64,000 bases of DNA from Mobula hypostoma (lineage: Eukaryota): assembly GCF_963921235.1 (NCBI RefSeq), contig NC_086097.1, positions 64,172,001-64,236,000 of the forward strand, written 5' to 3'. The notes under the pieces were generated by a model that saw only the letters and a program-made list of their open reading frames with translations, was not told where the DNA came from and searched no databases. The translations under genes were made by a program, and so were the position numbers. Positions 5,567 through 44,600 of this stretch are shown piece by piece (position 1 is the first letter of the stretch; the number at the start of each line of letters is the position of its first letter).

Positions 5567-8500
5567 TTTCGCCAAACAGTTTCTCTCCTTACCCGCTCTC
5601 GGAGATGCTAGGCCTTTGGAACTAATGGACCACATGCTGTCTCTCCCGGAAAATCACGATCCTTCTTGTACTTTTAAAGAAGTCCTCATGCAGCAAATGC
5701 CTGATCAAGTTTGCATAGCCCTCGCTAATGCACCTGTGAAGGACTATAGGGAGCTCGCTAAAATGGCTGATAGTCTACACTCAGCTAGGCAGCGATGCAT
5801 CATTCCTCCTCCATTCTCTGCCCACTACTGCAAAACAGACGACTCCGAGCCTGTGTTTTTAACCACGAACACTAGGAAGAGCCGATTGCGTTGCAGCTTC
5901 GACAGTGCCAGCACATCAGGACATCAGAGGTCTGTGAACACCATGGGTTCCAGCAGTCAGGGTTGTCTACTGTTCATTACAGATGCAATTTCAGGGCAAG
6001 GCCTCTTGTGTGAGATGGGTGCTCAAGTGAGTATGTTATTAGCATCACATATTGATGAGAAGGCAAAGAGTAATGAAACCTCACTGGAAACCCCCAATGC
6101 TAGGATGATGCGGACTTACAGGGCATGATTGGTGAAGCTCTGCTTCAGTGGGCGATGTTGCACATGGGACCTCGTCCTGGCTAAAGTGGCTAGACCTCTG
6201 CTCAGTACAGATTTCCTGTGTGTGCATGGACTGTCACTCCATCTTAAGAACTGCCCCCTTGTGGAAGTGAAGCACTTTGGGTCATTACCCTGCTCCCCCA
6301 GTAGGTTCCCCACAACGACTCTGTCAAGCGCATGAGCCACTGATTGTGAGTTTACTCGACTGCTGGGCGAATTCCCAAACCTCACCATGCTCACATTCCC
6401 CACTACAGCTACAAAACACAGGGTCAAGCACCACATTCCCACAACTGGCCCGCCAGTCCAAGCCCGCAGGTGCACACTGGACGCAGAAAAGCTGGTAACT
6501 GCAAAGGCTGCGTTGTCAACATGGAAAGTTTCAGAATTGTACACAGGTTGAATAGTCCCTGGGCTTCACCTCTCCATTGGTCCCTAAATCCAGTGGTGGT
6601 TGCTGCCCATGTGATGATTACTGTCGCCTTAATGAGGTCACATCCCCCGACTGTTACCCAGTCTCACACATTCAAGACTTCTTGGCATGTTTAGTCGGAA
6701 AGTTATTTTTTCCCAAAGCCAATCTAGTTGGGGGCTACCATTAGGTGTCTGTGTGCTTGGGGGACATTCCAGAAACAGCTGTGATAACCCCATTTGGCCT
6801 CTTTGAGTTTCTGCGCATGTTGTTTGGACCGACAAATGCAGCACAGACTTTCCAATGGCTGATGAACTATTAAAAGACGTAAGAGTTTCATTTTGCTTAC
6901 CTGGATGACAAACTTGTTGCCACTGTGTCCAAATCTGAACACGTATTACCTCCGCACACTTGTCGGGCGCTTAAGCCAATACAAGTTGATTATTAGCCCT
7001 GCTAAATGCCAGTTTGGGTTGTCTACCATTGACTTTCTTGGCCACTGACTCCACAGAAGGTGCGAAACCCCTCCCATCAAAGGTAGCCGCTATTATGGAC
7101 TTCCCACCGTCCTGCACTACAAAAAATCTACAGGAGTTTTTAGGTATGGTAAATTTGTATCACTGCTTCTTTCGGCAAGCTGCTGAACTGATGCTCCCCG
7201 TGTATAGTGTGCTTAAAGGTATTTGATGATACCAAACAAGCTCTTTCCAATCGACCGTACTGGCACATCCGCTCCCCAGTGCACCCATACCCATTACTGC
7301 TGATGCTTCAGACTATGTGGGCGCTGTACACGAACAGTGGGTCGGAGGCGGGTGGCAGCCGCTTGCCTTCTTCAGCCAGCAGCACCCCCCCCCCCCGAAA
7401 GCAAGTACAGCACATTTTGGTCTCTATCTGGCTTTCCGCCATTTTCGTTTTCTTCTAGAGAGTCGCCATTTCACAGTGTTCATTGACAACAAACCCCTTG
7501 TGCGCACAATGGCCTGAATATCAGACCCTTGGCCTGCATGGCAGCAACAGTACCTAGCCTACATATCCAAGTTCACAACCGCTATACAACATATCAAGGG
7601 GAAAAAGTAAAGCTGTGGCTGATTGCCTCTCACGGCCAGCCATTGATGCCATACCCATAGGGGCTGACGACACCGGCATAGCAGCTGACTGAGTTACTGA
7701 TCCAGAGATCCAGGCTTACTGAACAGCAGTTATGGGCCTGCGGTTGGCTGACCTTAAGCTTGGGGAAGCTGGGGTTTCTCTCCTGTGTGATTCCTCAACA
7801 GGTCAGCCTCGCCCAATCTTACCCGCAAACTGGAGACGGACTGTTTTGGACTCCGTACTTGGCCTCTCACATCCGGGCCGGAAGGCCTCACAGAAACTGG
7901 TGGCACTAACATTTGTTTGGCACGGCCTCAGAAAGGACGTGCGTGGTTGGACTGCAGCCTGTGTGGCCCAGAACCTCGGCATTAGGCTACATCACACCAT
8001 TGCGTATCACCCGCAGTCCATTGGCCTATGTGAGCGGTTCCGCCAATCCTTAAAAGCTGCTCTGAGTCTGAGGGCTTCCTTGATGGATGAGTGTTGGCAT
8101 GATTGTCTCGCATGCGTCCTGCGGGGGCTCAGAACAGCTCCACAAGGGGTCCTGCAGTTGCCCGCGGCTGAGTTGGTGTACGGGCAGCTGTTAGGAGCGC
8201 CAGCTGATTTCATTCCTGATGCCACGACCACCTGACAACAGCGTTCCACCCTCCTCAGTAAATTCAATTCCTTTAAACCCATTCCTACCTCCTGTCATGG
8301 CATTTACCACTCGTGGGCTCCTGTTGACCCACGTTCTACCTCGTTTGTTTTCGTCCGCCATGATGCGCATCAACATCCCCTTATGATGGCCCGTTCAGCG
8401 GTTTGGAATGGGGAGAAAAGACTTTTATCGTAGATAATAAGGGTAAACGTGAACGTATTTCGGGTCGATCACCTTAAACCAGCCCACTAAGGTCTGGAAG

Positions 8501-9944: not shown

Positions 9945-10785
9945 GTCTGGGGGGGGGAGGGGGGATGTTGGGTGTACGGTCGGGGGGAGTGTTGGGTGTA
10001 CGGTCAGGGGGTGTTGGTTGTACGGTCGGGGGGCTGTTGGGTGTTGGGTGTATGGTCGGGGGGCTATTGGGTGTTGGGTGTACGGTCGGAAGGTGTTGGG
10101 TGTACGGTCAGGGGAGTGTTGGGTTCACGGTCGGGGGTGTTGGGTGTACGGTCGGGGGTGTTGGGTGTACGGTCGGAAGGTGTTGGGTGTACGTTCGGGG
10201 GGGGGGTGTTGGGTGTACAGTCAGTGGGGTGTTGGGTGTACGGTCGTGGGGGGGGGGTTTTGGGTGTACGGTCGGGTGTACGGTTGGGGGGTGTTGGATG
10301 TACGGTCGGAGGGGGGTGTTGGGTGTACGGCCGGATGGGTGTAGGGTGTTGGGTGTACGGTCGGGGGGGTGTTGGGTGTACGGTCCGGGGGGGTGGTGGT
10401 GTACGGTCTGGGGGGGGGGTGTAGGGTGTACGGTCGGGGGGGGGGTGTTGGGTGTACGGTCGGGGGTGTAGGGTGTACGGTCGGGGGGTGTTGAATGTAC
10501 GGTCAGGGGGTGTTGAATGTACGGTCAGGGGGTGTTGGTTGTACGGTCGGGGGGGTGTTGGGTGTACGGTCCAGGGGGGGTGTTGGGTGTACGGTCCAGG
10601 GGGGGTGGTGTACGGTCTGGGGGGTGTAGGGTGTACGGTCGGGGGGTGGTGTTGGGTGTACGGTTGTGGTGGGGTGTAGGGTGTACGGTCGGGGGGTGTT
10701 GGATGTACGGTCGGGGGGCGTGTAGGGTGTACGGTCGGGGGTGTCGTGTTGGGTGTACGGTCAGGGGACGTTAGGTGTACCGTCA
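9945..10785 (+). repeat. G-rich minisatellite, ~20-23 bp unit GGGTGTACGGTCGGGGGGTGTT
   Basis: Dozens of directly visible units with variable G-run length. Confidence 0.95.
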
Positions 10786-13980: not shown

Positions 13981-15414
13981 ATGCCAAGAGGATTTCTAGT
14001 GAAGAGGAACATTAAATCGTCTCCGGTATCATATAGGATTCGGAGTGAGGAAAGACAGCCAGTGCAAATTCCTCTTTTGAGCGGGAATGCGCGAGCAGCC
14101 GTATGCCCACGGAGCATTTCACAGCTATGTCCTCAGAAAAATAGTCCAGCACAGCTGAAGGATGGATTTACACAAGATGAAATGCTGGACACGACCCATA
14201 GAAAGAACGAACGAGAGGAGGACGGTGTTTCAGGTACATCCTACACTAAAGACACTTTCTCAGAGTATAGTATCTCTGGTTGGGCTAATGTCTCTTACAC
14301 ACCCATCAAACCTATTGACAAGGAGCTCGAGAACGACTTCTTTGACACTTGTCTAAGGCAGTCTACTTCAGATGAGCATTTCGTTGCTGCAGCCTCGATA
14401 AACCCAATAGAGAGGCTCTTGGTTCAACCCTCTTTCTCCCCGATGACTGCGAAGTGTGGAGGCGTTACTCGCCTGTACTCACCTTTCCACGGGAGTAAGA
14501 GATGCGTGCCTGATCCTGGCCACCGCAAGCAGAAGAGCGCCCCGAAGAAGTCAAAAGTAATCAGGAAACTGAACTTCGAGGATGAGGTGAGCACTTCCCC
14601 CGTCTTGGGTCTACGAATTAAGGTTGATCCCACGGAGTGCAAGCCGTCATCGGCACTGATGAATAAACCCCTTGGAGAATTCATCTGTCAGTTGTGCAAA
14701 GAACAATATTCGGACCCGTTCGCTCTTGCTCAGCACAAGTGCTCTAGGATCGTTCGCGTGGAGTACCGCTGCCACGAGTGTGATAAAGTCTTCAGCTGCC
14801 CAGCTAACCTGGCCTCTCACCGGCGCTGGCACAAACCTCGAACTGATCCAAATCCCCAGAGGGACAACCAGAATTGCTTGGTGCCAGGCAGCAAGGAGAA
14901 CTCGGGGGAGGACGGCAACAGCTCCGGCACCATGGACAGCGCCAAGGAGCCAGGCTGTTCGCGAGCTGGTGCAGCCCAGCGGCTGGACGGCCGCTTCCAA
15001 TGTCGCTACTGCGGCAAGAGATTCCGTCGACAGGCTTACCTGAGAAAGCACCTAAGCGCCCACGAGGCGGCTGGGTCGAGCGTCCACAGCCACCTTCGGG
15101 CGGCCCGGATGTCTTTCCCTTGTCAGCTGTGCGGGTCGGACGTGCAGACGGCCGAGAGCCGTGACAAGCACCTGCTCTGGCATGCAGTCAGCGGCGCAGG
15201 ACCGGCGCTTTTCGGGCCGGACTGTGGTGAGAAATGCGCCGCTCCCGACGAGCACCCTAACAAGAGCGACCTGGGAGCCCTGCCCTTCTGTTGCAAACTC
15301 TGCTCATCGACTTTCTTCAGCTCGCCCGGACTCACTAGGCACATCAACAAGTGCCACCCGTCAGAGAATAGACAGGTGCTGCTCCTGCCTCTGCCGGCTT
15401 CGGTGGGCTGTTAG
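13981..15414 (+). CDS. INSM2: Insulinoma-associated protein 2, SNAG/zinc-finger transcriptional repressor, single coding exon, 477 aa
   Basis: ATG at 13981 (aagATGc) gives the SNAG start MPRGFLVKR. The INSM motif RKLNFEDEVSTSPVLGLRIK is followed by five fingers: CQLC..HKC, CHEC..HRRWH, CRYC..HLSAH, CQLC..HLLWH and CKLC..HINKCH. KEQY in finger 1, KHLLWH in finger 4 and the neighbouring RALGAPA1 favour INSM2 over INSM1. Confidence 0.93.
   Translation: MPRGFLVKRNIKSSPVSYRIRSEERQPVQIPLLSGNARAAVCPRSISQLCPQKNSPAQLKDGFTQDEMLDTTHRKNEREEDGVSGTSYTKDTFSEYSISGWANVSYTPIKPIDKELENDFFDTCLRQSTSDEHFVAAASINPIERLLVQPSFSPMTAKCGGVTRLYSPFHGSKRCVPDPGHRKQKSAPKKSKVIRKLNFEDEVSTSPVLGLRIKVDPTECKPSSALMNKPLGEFICQLCKEQYSDPFALAQHKCSRIVRVEYRCHECDKVFSCPANLASHRRWHKPRTDPNPQRDNQNCLVPGSKENSGEDGNSSGTMDSAKEPGCSRAGAAQRLDGRFQCRYCGKRFRRQAYLRKHLSAHEAAGSSVHSHLRAARMSFPCQLCGSDVQTAESRDKHLLWHAVSGAGPALFGPDCGEKCAAPDEHPNKSDLGALPFCCKLCSSTFFSSPGLTRHINKCHPSENRQVLLLPLPASVGC
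14923..14943 (+). promoter_or_regulatory. RE1/NRSE (REST-binding) motif inside the INSM2 CDS
   Basis: TCCGGCACCATGGACAGCGCC versus consensus TTCAGCACCAYGGACAGCGCC: 19/21, with canonical half-site spacing. Confidence 0.7.
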
Positions 15415-33066: not shown

Positions 33067-35268
33067 TCAGTACTTAGGGTCTAGAGTCACCTTAGACAGT
33101 GGCATGAGAGAGGAATTGGGCAAAGTTGGCTGGAAAGGGACACTAGTGGGAAGGACGGCAGAGCAGCAGTGGCTGGAGTTTATGTGAGAAGTGAGGAAGG
33201 TGCAAGACAGATATATTTCAAAAGAGAAGAAATTTTCGAATGGAAAAAGGATTGCAACCGTGGCTGACAAGAGAAGTCAAAGCCAAAGATAAAGCAAAGG
33301 AGAGGGCATACAAGGACGCAAAAATTAGTGGGAAGACAGAGGATTGGGAAGTTTTTAAAACCTTACAAAAGGAAACTAAGAAGGTCATTAAGAGGGAACA
33401 GAAGAACTATGAAAGGAAGCTAGCAAATAATATCAAAGAAGATACTAAAAGCTTTTTCAAATACATAAAGAGTAAAAGACAGGTGAGAGTAGATACAGGA
33501 CCGATAGAAAATGATGCTGGAGAAATTGTAATGGGAGATAAGGAGATGGCGGAAGAACTGAATGAGTATTTTGTATCAGTCTTCACTGAGGAAGACATCA
33601 GCAGTATACCAGATACTCAAGGGTGTCAGGGAAGAGAAGTGTGCACAGTCACAATTACGACAGAGAAAGTACTCAGGAAGCTGAATAGTCTAAGGGTAGA
33701 TAAATCTCCCGAACCAGATGGAATGCACCCTCGTGTTCTGAAGGAAGTAGCTGTAGAGATTGCAGAGGCATTAGCGATGATCTTTCAAAAGTCAATAGAT
33801 TCTGGCATGGCTCCAGAGGACTGGAAGATTGCAAATGTCACTCCGCTATTTAAGAAGAGGGCAAGGAAGCAAAAAGGAAATTATAGACCTGTTAGCTTGA
33901 CATCAGTGGTTGGGAAGTTGTTGGAGTCGATTGTCAAGGATGAGGTTATGGAGTACCTGGAGGTATATGACAAGATAGGCAAAACTCAGCATGGTTTCCT
34001 TAAAAGAAAATCCTGCCTGACAAACCTATTGCAATTTTTTGAGGAAATTACAAGTAGGCTAGACAAGGGAGATGCAGTGGATGTTGTGTATTTGGATTTT
34101 CAGAAGGCCTTTGACAAGGTGCCGTACATGAGACTGCTAAACAAGAGCCCATGGAATTATGGGAAAGTTACATACGTGGATACAGCATTGGTTGATTGGC
34201 AGGAAACAGAGAGTGGGAATAAAGGGATCCTATTCTGGTTGGCTGCCGATTACCAGTGGTGTTCCACAGGGGTCCGTGTTGGGGCCGCTTCTTTTTACGC
34301 TATACATCAACAATTTGGATTATGGAATAGATGGCTTTGTGGCTAAGTTTGCTGATGATACAAAGATAGGTGGAGGGGCTGGTAGTACTGAGGAAACAGA
34401 GAGTCTGCAGAGAGACTTGGATAGATAGGGAGAATGGGGAAAGAAGTGGAAAATGAAGTACAATGTTGGAAAGTGTATGGTTATGCACTTTGGCAGAAGA
34501 AATAAATGGGGAGACTATTATTTAAGTGGGGAGAGAATTCAAAGTTCTGAGATGCAATGGGACTTGAGAGTCCTCGTGCAGGATACCCTTAAGGTTAACC
34601 TCCAGGTTGAGTCGGTGTTGAAGACGGCGAATGCAATGTTGGCATTCATTTCTCGAGGAATAAAGTATAGCAGCAGGAATGTGATGTTGAGGCTCTATAA
34701 GGCACTCACTTGGAGTACTGTGGGCAGTTTTGGGCTCCTTATTTAAGAAAGGATGTGCTGATGTCGGAGAGGGTTCAGAGAAGATTCACTAGAATGATTC
34801 CGGGATTGAGAGGGTTACCATATGAGGAACGTTTGCCCACTCTTGGACTGTACTCCTTGGAGTTTAGAAGAATGAGGGGGGACCTCATAGAAACATTTCG
34901 AATGTTGAAAGGCATGGACAGAGTGGATGTGGCAAATTTGTTTCCCATGGTGGGGGAGTCTAGTACGAGAGGGCATGACTTAAGGATTGAAGGGCACCCA
35001 TTCAGAACAGAAATGCGAAGAAATTTTTTTAGTCAGAGGGTGGTGAATCTGTGTAATTTGTTGTCACGGGTGGCAGTGGAGGCCAAGTCATTGGGTGTAT
35101 TTAAGGCAGAGATTGATAGGTATTTGAGTAGCCAGGGCATCAAAGGTTATGGTGAGAAGGCAGGGGAGTGGGACTAAATGGGAGAATGGATCAGCTCATG
35201 ATAAAATATCAGAGCAGACTTGATGGGTCCAATGGCCGACTTCTGCTACTTTGTCTTACGGTCTTATG
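33067..35268 (+). mobile_element. 5'-truncated CR1 LINE, best-preserved copy; ORF2 RT broken by frameshifts
   Basis: ORFs 33240-34346, 34159-34428, 34453-34746 and 34710-35177 carry GNYRPVSLTSVVGKLLE, YLDFQKAFDKVP, GVPQGSVLGPLLF and FADDTK. TCTTAYGG tail. Confidence 0.95.
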
Positions 35269-41689: not shown

Positions 41690-44600
41690 GGGAAAGTACT
41701 GAAAGGCAAAATCAGAAAAACAGGTACGATGTGTCAGATAGCTTGAAGTGTGTATATTTTAATGCTAGGAGTATTATAGGCAAAGGTGATTAACTTGGAG
41801 CATGGATCAGTATGTGGAACTACGATGTTGCGGCCATTACAGAGTCTTGGCTGAGAGAGGGGCAGGAATGAGTGATTAACATACCAGGTTTTCGGAGTTT
41901 TAGATAAGATACGAGACGGAGGTAAAGTTGGGGGTGGTGGGGCGGGAAGAGCTGTATGACTAATCAGGGACTATATCACAGCTGCACAGAATGGAGACCT
42001 AACGGAGGGTTTAGACACCGAATCCATTTGGGTAGAACAGGAATAGGAACGGTGCAATCACACTGATGGGATTGTAATACAGACCTTCCCCCCTCCCCCC
42101 CCCCATGGTCACCGGGACATTGAGAAACAAATATGTAAACAGATTAAGGAACTGTGTAAAATTAATAGGGTTGCTGTCATGGGGGATTTCAACTTCCCTT
42201 ATATAAATGAAAACTTCTTAGTGCAAGGGGATTAGATGGGACAAAATTTGTTAAGTGTATCCAGGAGGGTTTCTTAAAATCAGTATCTAGATGGTCCAAT
42301 GAAAGGAGGGTCTGTATTGGACTTGGTGTTGGGTAATGAGCCTGGCCAGGTGACTGACCATTCAGTGGGTGAGCAGTTAGGGAAGAGTGACCACAACTCC
42401 TTAACTTCCAGGATAGCTATAGATAAGGATAGATGCTTGTAGGAGAGTCTTAAATTGGAGATGGACAAATTTCAAGGGCATTAGGCAGGAACTAAGAAGA
42501 GTTTAATGAGAACACCATTTTTTCTGGCGAGTCCACATCAGTCATGTGGAGGGTGTTTAAAGATCAATTGCACGGTGTACAGGAAAAGTATGTTCCTGTT
42601 AGAAGGGAAGGCAGGGATGGAAAGATAAGAGAACCTTGGACGTCCAGAGGTACTGATTTAGTCAAGAAGAAAAAGGAAAAGTACGTAAAGCTTCAAAAGT
42701 TAGGATCAAACAAAGCACATGAGGATTATAAAGAAGCCAGAAAAGAACTAAGGGGGAATTAGAAAAGTCGGAGAGGCCATGAAAAGTCTTTGGCAAGTAG
42801 GATTAAGGAAAACACCAAGGCATTCTATACATAGCCAGCTGGTGGCATAGTGGTAGCGAAGGTTCCTGAGTTCGAATCCATCCGGCTCCCTTGCATGCTT
42901 TCGTGCAACTCGGCCTTGTAAAAATGAGAAAGCCTGCTAAAAAAAAACGCTATGTTGGCGTCCCGATGACTCCACTTGGAGTTAAGGGCAAAAAAAAATT
43001 CTATACATAAATTAAGAGCAAGAGGATAACTAGGGAGAGGGCAGGACCACTCAAGGATAAAGAGGAGGACATTTGTTTGGATGTGTAGAATGTGAGTGAG
43101 GTACCTAATGAGTCCTTTGCTTCACTATTTACAAAGGAAAAGGACAGAGGACCAGGAGATCAGCGCTATGTGCATAAATATGTCAAGGAGGAGGAAGTGT
43201 TGGGGCTCCTAGTGAATATTAAAGTGCAGATGGGGTTTACGGGACCTTGAGCAGTATCTTCGTGTCCTCTCTAGGCACAGACAAGATCCCGGAGGACTGG
43301 CTAGTAGCTAATGTTGTTACCTCTATTTAAAAAAGAGAACAAGGGAACATCCTGGAAACTATAGGCCTGTGAGTCTCACATCAGTTGTAGGGAAATTACT
43401 GGAGAAAATTCTTAGGGATAGGATATATGAGCATTTGGAAACCCACTGCCTAATTAGGGAGAGCCAGCGTGGCTTTGTGCGGGGCAAGTCGTGTCTTATC
43501 AACTTGAATGAGTTTTTTGACAAGGTGCCAAGAGAGATTGATGAAGGTAGAGCTGTGGACGTTGTCAACATGGACTTTAGTAAGGCCATTGACAAAGTCC
43601 CTCTTGGGAGGCTAATCCAGAAAATTAGGATGCATGAGGTCCTCGGCAAATTGACTGCTTGGATTCAGAACTGGCTTGCACATAGAAGACAAAGGGCAGT
43701 GGTTGAAGGGACTTATTTGAGCTGGAGGTCTATAATTAGCAGAGCTTTGCAGAGATCTCTTCTGTTTGTGATGTATATATATGACCTGGATGAAAATGCA
43801 GATGAGTGTTAGTAAGTTTGCAGATGATACCAAGACGGTGACACCGTGGATAATGTAGAAGACTGGCAAAGACATAAATCAATTGCAGGTATGGGCAGAG
43901 AAATGGCAGATGGAGGATAACCCAGATAAATGTGAGGTGTTGCACTTTGGTAGGGAAAATGCAAGGAGACAGTACATCGTTATGGGCAAGACCCTTAACA
44001 GTGTTGCTGATCAGAGAGATCTTGGGGTCCAAGTTAATTCTCCATGAAAGTGGCTACACAGGCCGATAGGTTAAGAAATCTTACCAAATGCTTGCTTTTA
44101 TTAGTCGAGGCATTGAATTTAAAAGCCAGATGTTATGTTGCAACTTTATAAAACTCTGGTTAGGCAGCCTGGAATTTTGCATACAGTTCAGGTCTTCCCG
44201 CTATAGGAAGGACCTTCAGGCTTTTTAGAGGGTGCAAAAGAGGTTTACCAGGATGCAGCCTGGTTGAGAGGGCATGTGCTATCATGAAAGTCTGTACAAA
44301 CTTGGGTTGTTTTCTTTGGAGCAGAGGAGGCCAAGGGAGATCTGATAAAGGTTTATAAGATTATGAAAGGTATAGATAGGGTAATCAGGGAGTATCTGTT
44401 CCCCAGGGTAGAAATGTCTAATACCAGAAGGCACGCATTGAAGATGAGAGGGGCGAGATTCAAAAGGGATGTGAGGGGTAAGTTTTTTTTACTCAGCATT
44501 CTGGATGCCTGAAATGTGCTGCCTGGAATGGTGGTAGAGGCAAATACATCAGAGGCTTTTAGGAGATGTTTAGAACGTGAACTTGAGGAAGACAGAGGGA

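Follow-up and report, generated by a model that had tools for sequence, protein, structure and literature searches.

The linker between zinc fingers 2 and 3 of INSM2 in the ray Mobula hypostoma encodes, in frame, a 21-mer that resembles the RE1 element bound by REST, and this exonic site is real and not a product of chance. We consider it probable that the 21-mer is the ray version of an ancient exonic REST element, which probably represses INSM2 outside neural and neuroendocrine cells. Judging from the linker sequences, vertebrates do not conserve the canonical 21-mer, while the RE1 half-sites appear to be conserved. "The window" denotes the whole stretch of 64,000 nucleotides that was analyzed, and positions refer to it.

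The Host Gene and Its Neighborhood

The ray gene is INSM2 and not INSM1. The encoded protein shares 99% identity with one from Mobula birostris, and the database names of the matching proteins differ (INSM1a, 1b, 2). In a tree of 29 sequences it joins human and mouse INSM2 with a support of 98/98. Along with the tree, the gene's surroundings bear out the name given in the preliminary description: Rap_GAP exons follow tail-to-tail about 59 kb downstream (C1:64.245-64.251 Mb, minus strand), a neighbor which we take to fit the linkage of INSM2 with RALGAPA1. Since these GAP exons lie 9-15 kb past the window end, the RALGAPA1-like 3' exons are probably contained in the window (15500-64000, minus strand).

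Three further INSM genes (L002-L004) are present in the ray genome. No RE1 with five or fewer mismatches was found in about 3 kb around each of them; L002 and L003 contain a lone in-frame, right-half-like RDS. Likewise, 49 of 49 INSM loci from metagenomes were of a non-vertebrate (invertebrate-like) type and without an RE1. L003 (on C82) and L004 (on C50) represent divergent extra INSM paralogues with long branches. The INSM paralogues on C22 and C82 are located within about 0.2 Mb of Rap-GAP genes; for the paralogue on C50 this distance is about 1.5 Mb.

Within the window, a G-rich minisatellite (22-23 bp unit, about 35 copies, 9957-10784) is located 3 kb upstream of INSM2. Retroelement fragments at 33195-35177, 43312-43812, and 7723-8235 comprise two reverse-transcriptase pieces and one integrase zinc-binding piece.

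Position and Match of the RE1-Like Site

The features of the ray gene discussed here are collected in Table 1.

Table 1. Features of ray INSM2 and its RE1-like site (window coordinates).
Feature	Position	Strand	Description
INSM2 coding sequence	13981..15414	+	intronless, 477 aa; SNAG-type N-terminus, C2H2 fingers
KEN tripeptide	14893..14901	+	residues 305-307, ten residues upstream of SGTMDSA
RE1-like 21-mer	14923..14943	+	TCCGGCACCATGGACAGCGCC; canonical spacing; frame 0, codons 315-321 (SGTMDSA), zinc finger 2-3 linker
Left half-site, A4>G	14923..14931	+	codons Ser-Gly-Thr
Right half-site, perfect	14934..14943	+	last Met base, then Asp-Ser-Ala

The preliminary description had reported a near-perfect RE1 that codes for SGTMDSA between fingers 2 and 3, and both its quality and its reading frame were confirmed. 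Compared with TTCAGCACCNNGGACAGCGCC, which we take to be the RE1 consensus motif and used for scoring, 17 of the 19 specified positions agree, and no deviation occurs in the spacer (2 bp) or in the right half (10 bp). The two mismatches are T>C at position 2 and A4>G in the core of the left half. At position 2 of RE1, C is tolerated (TYC); we counted the first mismatch as such, which leaves A4>G as the single deviation. The G4 form is rare in this genome, with 6 exact occurrences of CGGCACCNNGGACAGC (1 for the reversed control) versus 167 of CAGCACCNNGGACAGC, and because it is found just six times it is probably weaker than the consensus.

The 21-mer is the sole RE1 match with three or fewer mismatches in the 64-kb window, where the runner-up has four; an RE1 match arose in 1 of 100 dinucleotide shuffles of the window. 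The region around the site is CpG-rich. Across sharks and rays, the Thr codon alone is kept from the left half-site, and the right half-site lines up with the Asp-Ser that never changes in mammalian INSM2.

Codon Choice and Genome-Wide Abundance

Given the peptide SGTMDSA and the gene's own codon usage, the occurrence of RE1-optimal codons has a post hoc probability of P = 7-9e-5 (about 1e-4). ACC accounts for 1 of the 17 other Thr codons in ray INSM2, and TCC for 3 of the 50 other Ser codons. An equal site was obtained in neither 2000 synonymous resamplings nor 2000 codon shuffles of the ray coding sequence (0/2000 each). The site lies inside the translated sequence of a conserved ORF, with a codon choice biased to the motif.

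In the whole genome, exact cores with a spacer of 2 bp occur 167 times, about 8-fold above the spacer controls (spacers 3-6, about 22 per spacer, an estimate based on the first 100 of 542 matches). This excess suggests that the REST system of the ray is functional. The spacer controls were used because extra CpGs distort the reversed-pattern control (0 vs 167), which was set aside. Across the genome, half-site pairs with spacers of 8 bp and 11 bp recur in nearly identical form and suggest repeat families with non-canonical RE1-like motifs.

Half-Sites and REST Occupancy in Human and Mouse

For human INSM2, the DNA of the half-sites was predicted from the peptides first and then confirmed. The oligo REST_chr14:36004473-36004673_nm, an entry in the accessible part of Table S2 of PMC9903721, encodes the linker of protein P0210 when translated by eye. 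It carries a left half, 10 bp, and a right half at positions 76-104, followed by a left half, 1 bp, and a perfect right half at positions 112-131. The Asp codons preceding both Gln-His end in T and thereby complete the 8-base left half. Read by eye, the human codons fit the motif as well: both Asp-Ser are encoded by GAC AGC, whereas an Asp-Ser upstream in the linker uses TCC.

According to the portion of PMC9903721 at hand, oligos without a canonical motif, the class that we take the suffix "nm" to designate, were centered on ENCODE REST ChIP-seq peaks; the peak center therefore falls on the human INSM2 array. The half-site pairs straddle this center, at the position aligned with the ray site. 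In mouse SCLC cells, the available supplement of PMC9110333 places a REST ChIP peak at +861 to +1040 of Insm2, and the motif, at nt 877-930 from the ATG, is located inside this peak if the 5' UTR measures no more than about 110 nt. The inspection of REST ChIP-seq over mammalian INSM2 that the preliminary description had proposed thus yields a human peak on the linker and a mouse peak within Insm2. Entries for INSM2, by name or by coordinates, were absent from the accessible supplements of PMC2573930, PMC11025195, and PMC4055426, and a name search of that of PMC9903721 gave no entry; as all of these tables may be keyed differently or truncated, such blanks carry little weight.

Distribution of the Half-Sites among Linker Proteins

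We surveyed the linkers of 265 parsed proteins out of 266, where the absence of the INSM1 SESG motif defined the INSM2-type. As the sequences are related and mammal-heavy, the following counts are non-independent: a full half-site pair is encodable by 179 of 210 INSM2-type linkers (174 with spacer 10, 105 with spacer 1), and by 0 of 55 INSM1-type linkers, 29 of 210 INSM2 N-termini, and 17-28 of 210 linkers after shuffling. The 31 misses are composed of 15 chondrichthyans, 11 models with a shortened linker, 3 teleosts in which Glu replaces Asp, and 2 coelacanth models in which Asn does so.

In bony vertebrates the retained peptide is QHxxxxDS; it represents half-sites 10 bp apart if it is encoded as CAG CAC C.. 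... ... ..G GAC AGC. Mammals additionally carry QHxDSA, with half-sites predicted 1 bp apart. The preliminary description had tentatively placed a QHPDSA peptide in the human linker, correctly so (P0210); this peptide is less well conserved than QHxxxxDS.

In cartilaginous fish, T[ML][DE]S is kept in 17 of 19 INSM2 proteins and absent from two. It covers RE1 positions 7-18, and its Met/Leu variation sits at the free spacer base. In these 17 proteins, Thr is preceded by G, R, E, D, or Q, and never by the Ser of a perfect left half. Both forms occur within one unit in coelacanth (QHHHTMNSS) and smelt (QHQSTMESS), and the Asp-Ser column aligns across jawed vertebrates. The skate proteins P0005 and P0007 contain TMDS in tandem (2 copies; up to 5 DS units), by which right half-sites would multiply.

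The linker is also marked by the tripeptide KEN, found in 189 of 210 INSM2-type and 0 of 55 INSM1-type linkers. We take it to be a KEN box, a candidate INSM2-specific degron of the APC/C type, and it likely acts at the protein level as a separate constraint on the INSM2 linker. INSM1-type ZF2-ZF3 linkers (e.g., P0066, P0077) share a conserved SDRDTPSPGLSESGSEDG that resembles a phosphodegron.

Substitution Pattern

In 121 mammalian INSM2 proteins (after removal of 4 non-mammals and of 3 models with truncations or frameshifts), Q365, H366, D371, and S372 show 0 changes, compared to a median of 9 parsimony changes at 97 background linker sites, 6 of which have none. This invariance of the half-site codons implies selection. 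At residue 367, a C-starting codon is retained in 12 of 13 changes (6.0 expected, P=0.0006), 7 of which are Pro/Leu and may reflect CpG decay, inflating the significance. The remaining 4 changes from Pro at this residue all lead to Q, R, or H (background 46/255). Changes compatible with the codon class amount to 10 of 10 at residue 370 (P=0.21) and 13 of 18 at residue 379 (P=0.16), neither being significant.

Among 90 other INSM2-type proteins, 59 contain the QH...DS motif in 32 distinct forms (2 of them mammalian leftovers). Its position 3 is taken by a C-starting amino acid in 32 of 32 forms (background 33%), and its position 6 by a residue unable to end in G in 0 of 32 (background 21%). Sequencing reads from relatives of the ray revealed 0 differences in the site, with about 0.5 expected, among the 40 of 172 listed and with three of the four runs covering the site, which leaves a synonymous test without power.

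The earlier proposal that the DNA motif rather than the peptide is conserved holds in part. The human half-site pairs and a substitution pattern that partly favors constraint on the DNA rather than on the peptide argue for it, but it does not extend to the canonical 21-mer.

Evidence on Silencing

The expression evidence on silencing by the INSM2 site is mixed. The accessible text of PMC11456559 lists INSM2 as an RE1 gene from ChIP-Atlas and records a decrease of INSM2 with one of two REST-restoring oligonucleotides in 22Rv1 cells. In those tables of PMC9110333 that match REST overexpression in mouse KP1 NE cells, Insm2 is unchanged at 48 h and 5 days (log2FC +0.05, -0.05); a further table, which we take to compare non-NE with NE cells, gives a log2FC of -1.59 (padj 0.012). 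Activation of the Insm2 promoter by Ngn3/NeuroD1 is described in the available part of PMC6202866. Regarding the dual-use codon and silencer element postulated in the preliminary description, the in-frame, RE1-optimal codons agree with the former, while the latter meets with the mixed expression evidence.

The spacing bears on this question as well. MPRAduo assays, as far as the accessible text of PMC9903721 goes, found non-canonical spacers repressive at 8-9 bp only, and repression from only 10% of the peaks without a canonical motif. ChIP-nexus revealed gaps of 2 or 7-9 bp, and REST binding to right-half-only sites as well (PMC8096226, in part). Measured against these two data sets, the INSM2 spacers of 10 and 1 bp are marginal. 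From the ChIP-PET data in the available sections of PMC2573930, reductions of the spacer to 0-1 bp and expansions by 7-11 bp were reported; REST effects were stronger near the TSS, and dominant-negative REST left most REST-bound genes un-derepressed.

Proposed Origin and Alternative Explanations

An ancestral linker unit of the form QHHxTMDSS, which is still seen in coelacanth and smelt, may have held the right half-site within its Asp-Ser frame, where it would have been fixed in all jawed vertebrates. In bony vertebrates, Gln-His would have persisted as the left half at a spacing of 10 bp, and a second mammalian copy would add a left half 1 bp upstream. Sharks may have retained mainly the Thr codon and the right half, and in rays the Ser-Gly-Thr codons would provide a near-canonical left half at 2 bp. 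The poorly conserved linker would tolerate the amino acids imposed by such a DNA element. REST represses by corepressor recruitment; from a site about 0.95 kb past the start codon, it would recruit corepressors to the nearby promoter of the short, intronless INSM2 and dampen that promoter in cells that contain REST.

That the 21-mer is a chance match without REST binding is extremely improbable. A base-composition model predicts 0.5-11 sites this good in the 3.5 Gb of the genome, and the site was found by motif search; the same model, however, predicts only 0.005-0.11 in coding DNA (35 Mb assumed), i.e., at most about 0.1 in all coding DNA, the same linker is REST-occupied in human and probably in mouse, and three paralogous plus 49 invertebrate loci are without such a site. 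REST might also bind the exonic site with little effect on INSM2, or act on the RALGAPA-type neighbor instead, which we regard as unlikely. The unchanged Insm2 under REST overexpression in mouse NE cells would fit, as would the failure of spacers other than 8-9 bp to repress in MPRAduo, the 10% repressive share of peaks without a canonical motif, and the majority of REST-bound genes that dominant-negative REST does not derepress. Against such idle binding stand half-site codons that selection appears to hold invariant in 121 mammalian proteins, the location of the site about 1 kb into INSM2 and so in the range of the strongest REST effects, the decrease of INSM2 on REST restoration in 22Rv1 cells, and the canonical spacing of the ray site.

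If instead a short protein motif were conserved, e.g., a phosphosite with the KEN box nearby, the resemblance to RE1 would be secondary. The linker does carry KEN at the protein level (189/210), QH and DS do not vary as amino acids, significance was reached in only one of the three codon-class tests, and orthologue codons come from human and this ray only. Still, this is clearly unlikely, since the peptides differ (GTMDSA in rays, QHPQARDSS in mammals) yet both DNAs read as RE1, and a protein motif leaves the choice of AGC, ACC, and TCC, the C-start rule at residue 367, and the centered REST peak unexplained. Two REST elements of independent origin, one in rays and one in bony vertebrates, could have arisen in a permissive linker: the half-site architecture is not the same (a spacer of 2 as opposed to 10 and 1), the distance from KEN to DS varies among lineages, and the many indels of the linker, together with its tandem copies in skates, coelacanth, and mammals, render the alignment uncertain. 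Against this decidedly improbable scenario stand the coelacanth and smelt peptides, which unite both forms, and an Asp-Ser column aligned across jawed vertebrates.

The shared exonic REST element thus remains the reading that we prefer. We tentatively put forward, as a possibility, that a silencer has resided in the INSM2 frame since the origin of jawed vertebrates, that it dictates QHxxxxDS and TMDS, and that its spacing switched among 10, 1, and 2 bp with the frame kept. This depth corresponds to roughly 450 million years. If true, a regulatory DNA element would shape a protein sequence across the whole jawed-vertebrate tree, and conserved residues in a poorly conserved linker could be mistaken for a protein motif. 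Variants in residues 364-382 of human INSM2, whether "silent" or missense, could then alter REST binding. REST and a neuroendocrine and islet regulator would be linked directly, and the INSM paralogues would be separated, raising the question why INSM2, unlike the INSM1 linker, is wired to REST in this way. The spacer series of 2, 10, and 1 bp bears on which non-canonical RE1s function and would offer a natural series for testing silencing in vivo by spacers other than 8 or 9 bp.

Relation to Known Coding REST Sites

Codons doubling as transcription-factor sites were reportedly described as duons by Stergachis in 2013. The INSM2 site shares this double use with duons in general; unlike them, it apparently sets amino-acid identity besides codon choice. 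Neither the general idea of a coding RE1 nor the occupancy of INSM2 by REST is novel; what is new is the apparent jawed-vertebrate age with its spacer turnover. The occupancy is public in PMC11456559 (ChIP-Atlas) and in the supplements of PMC9903721 and PMC9110333, whose INSM2 entries, in the parts available, do not mention a coding site, a half-site layout, or a fish ancestry. No description of a coding RE1 in INSM2 or of its conservation was found in the literature searched, which was mostly open full text and judged largely by title or abstract.

The accessible part of PMC3298695 reports 101 of 2596 NRSF peaks overlapping coding sequence. The closest parallel in coding exons is given by the protocadherins, where, according to the available text of PMC2926608, 20 of the 25 human NRSEs and 19 of the 35 in mouse are located in coding exons and bound by REST; binding was demonstrated in EMSA and ChIP-nexus (PMC2926608; PMC8096226, both in part). 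As in INSM2, an RE1 resides in the exons of neural genes. The available pages of PMC2926608 judge the protocadherin NRSEs to have arisen de novo in mammals and also contain predictions of NRSEs in elephant shark. Unlike these mammal-specific elements, the INSM2 site is apparently jawed-vertebrate-wide, is placed in the poorly conserved linker of a transcription factor, and shifts its spacer class by lineage. Exon 1 of CELSR3 (PMC8096226, in the portion seen) resembles mammalian INSM2 in that a left-right-left-right array in a first exon underlies one REST peak. The gaps in CELSR3 measure 11, 9, and 11 bp, while the human INSM2 pairs are spaced by 10 and 1 bp and the ray has a single canonical site.
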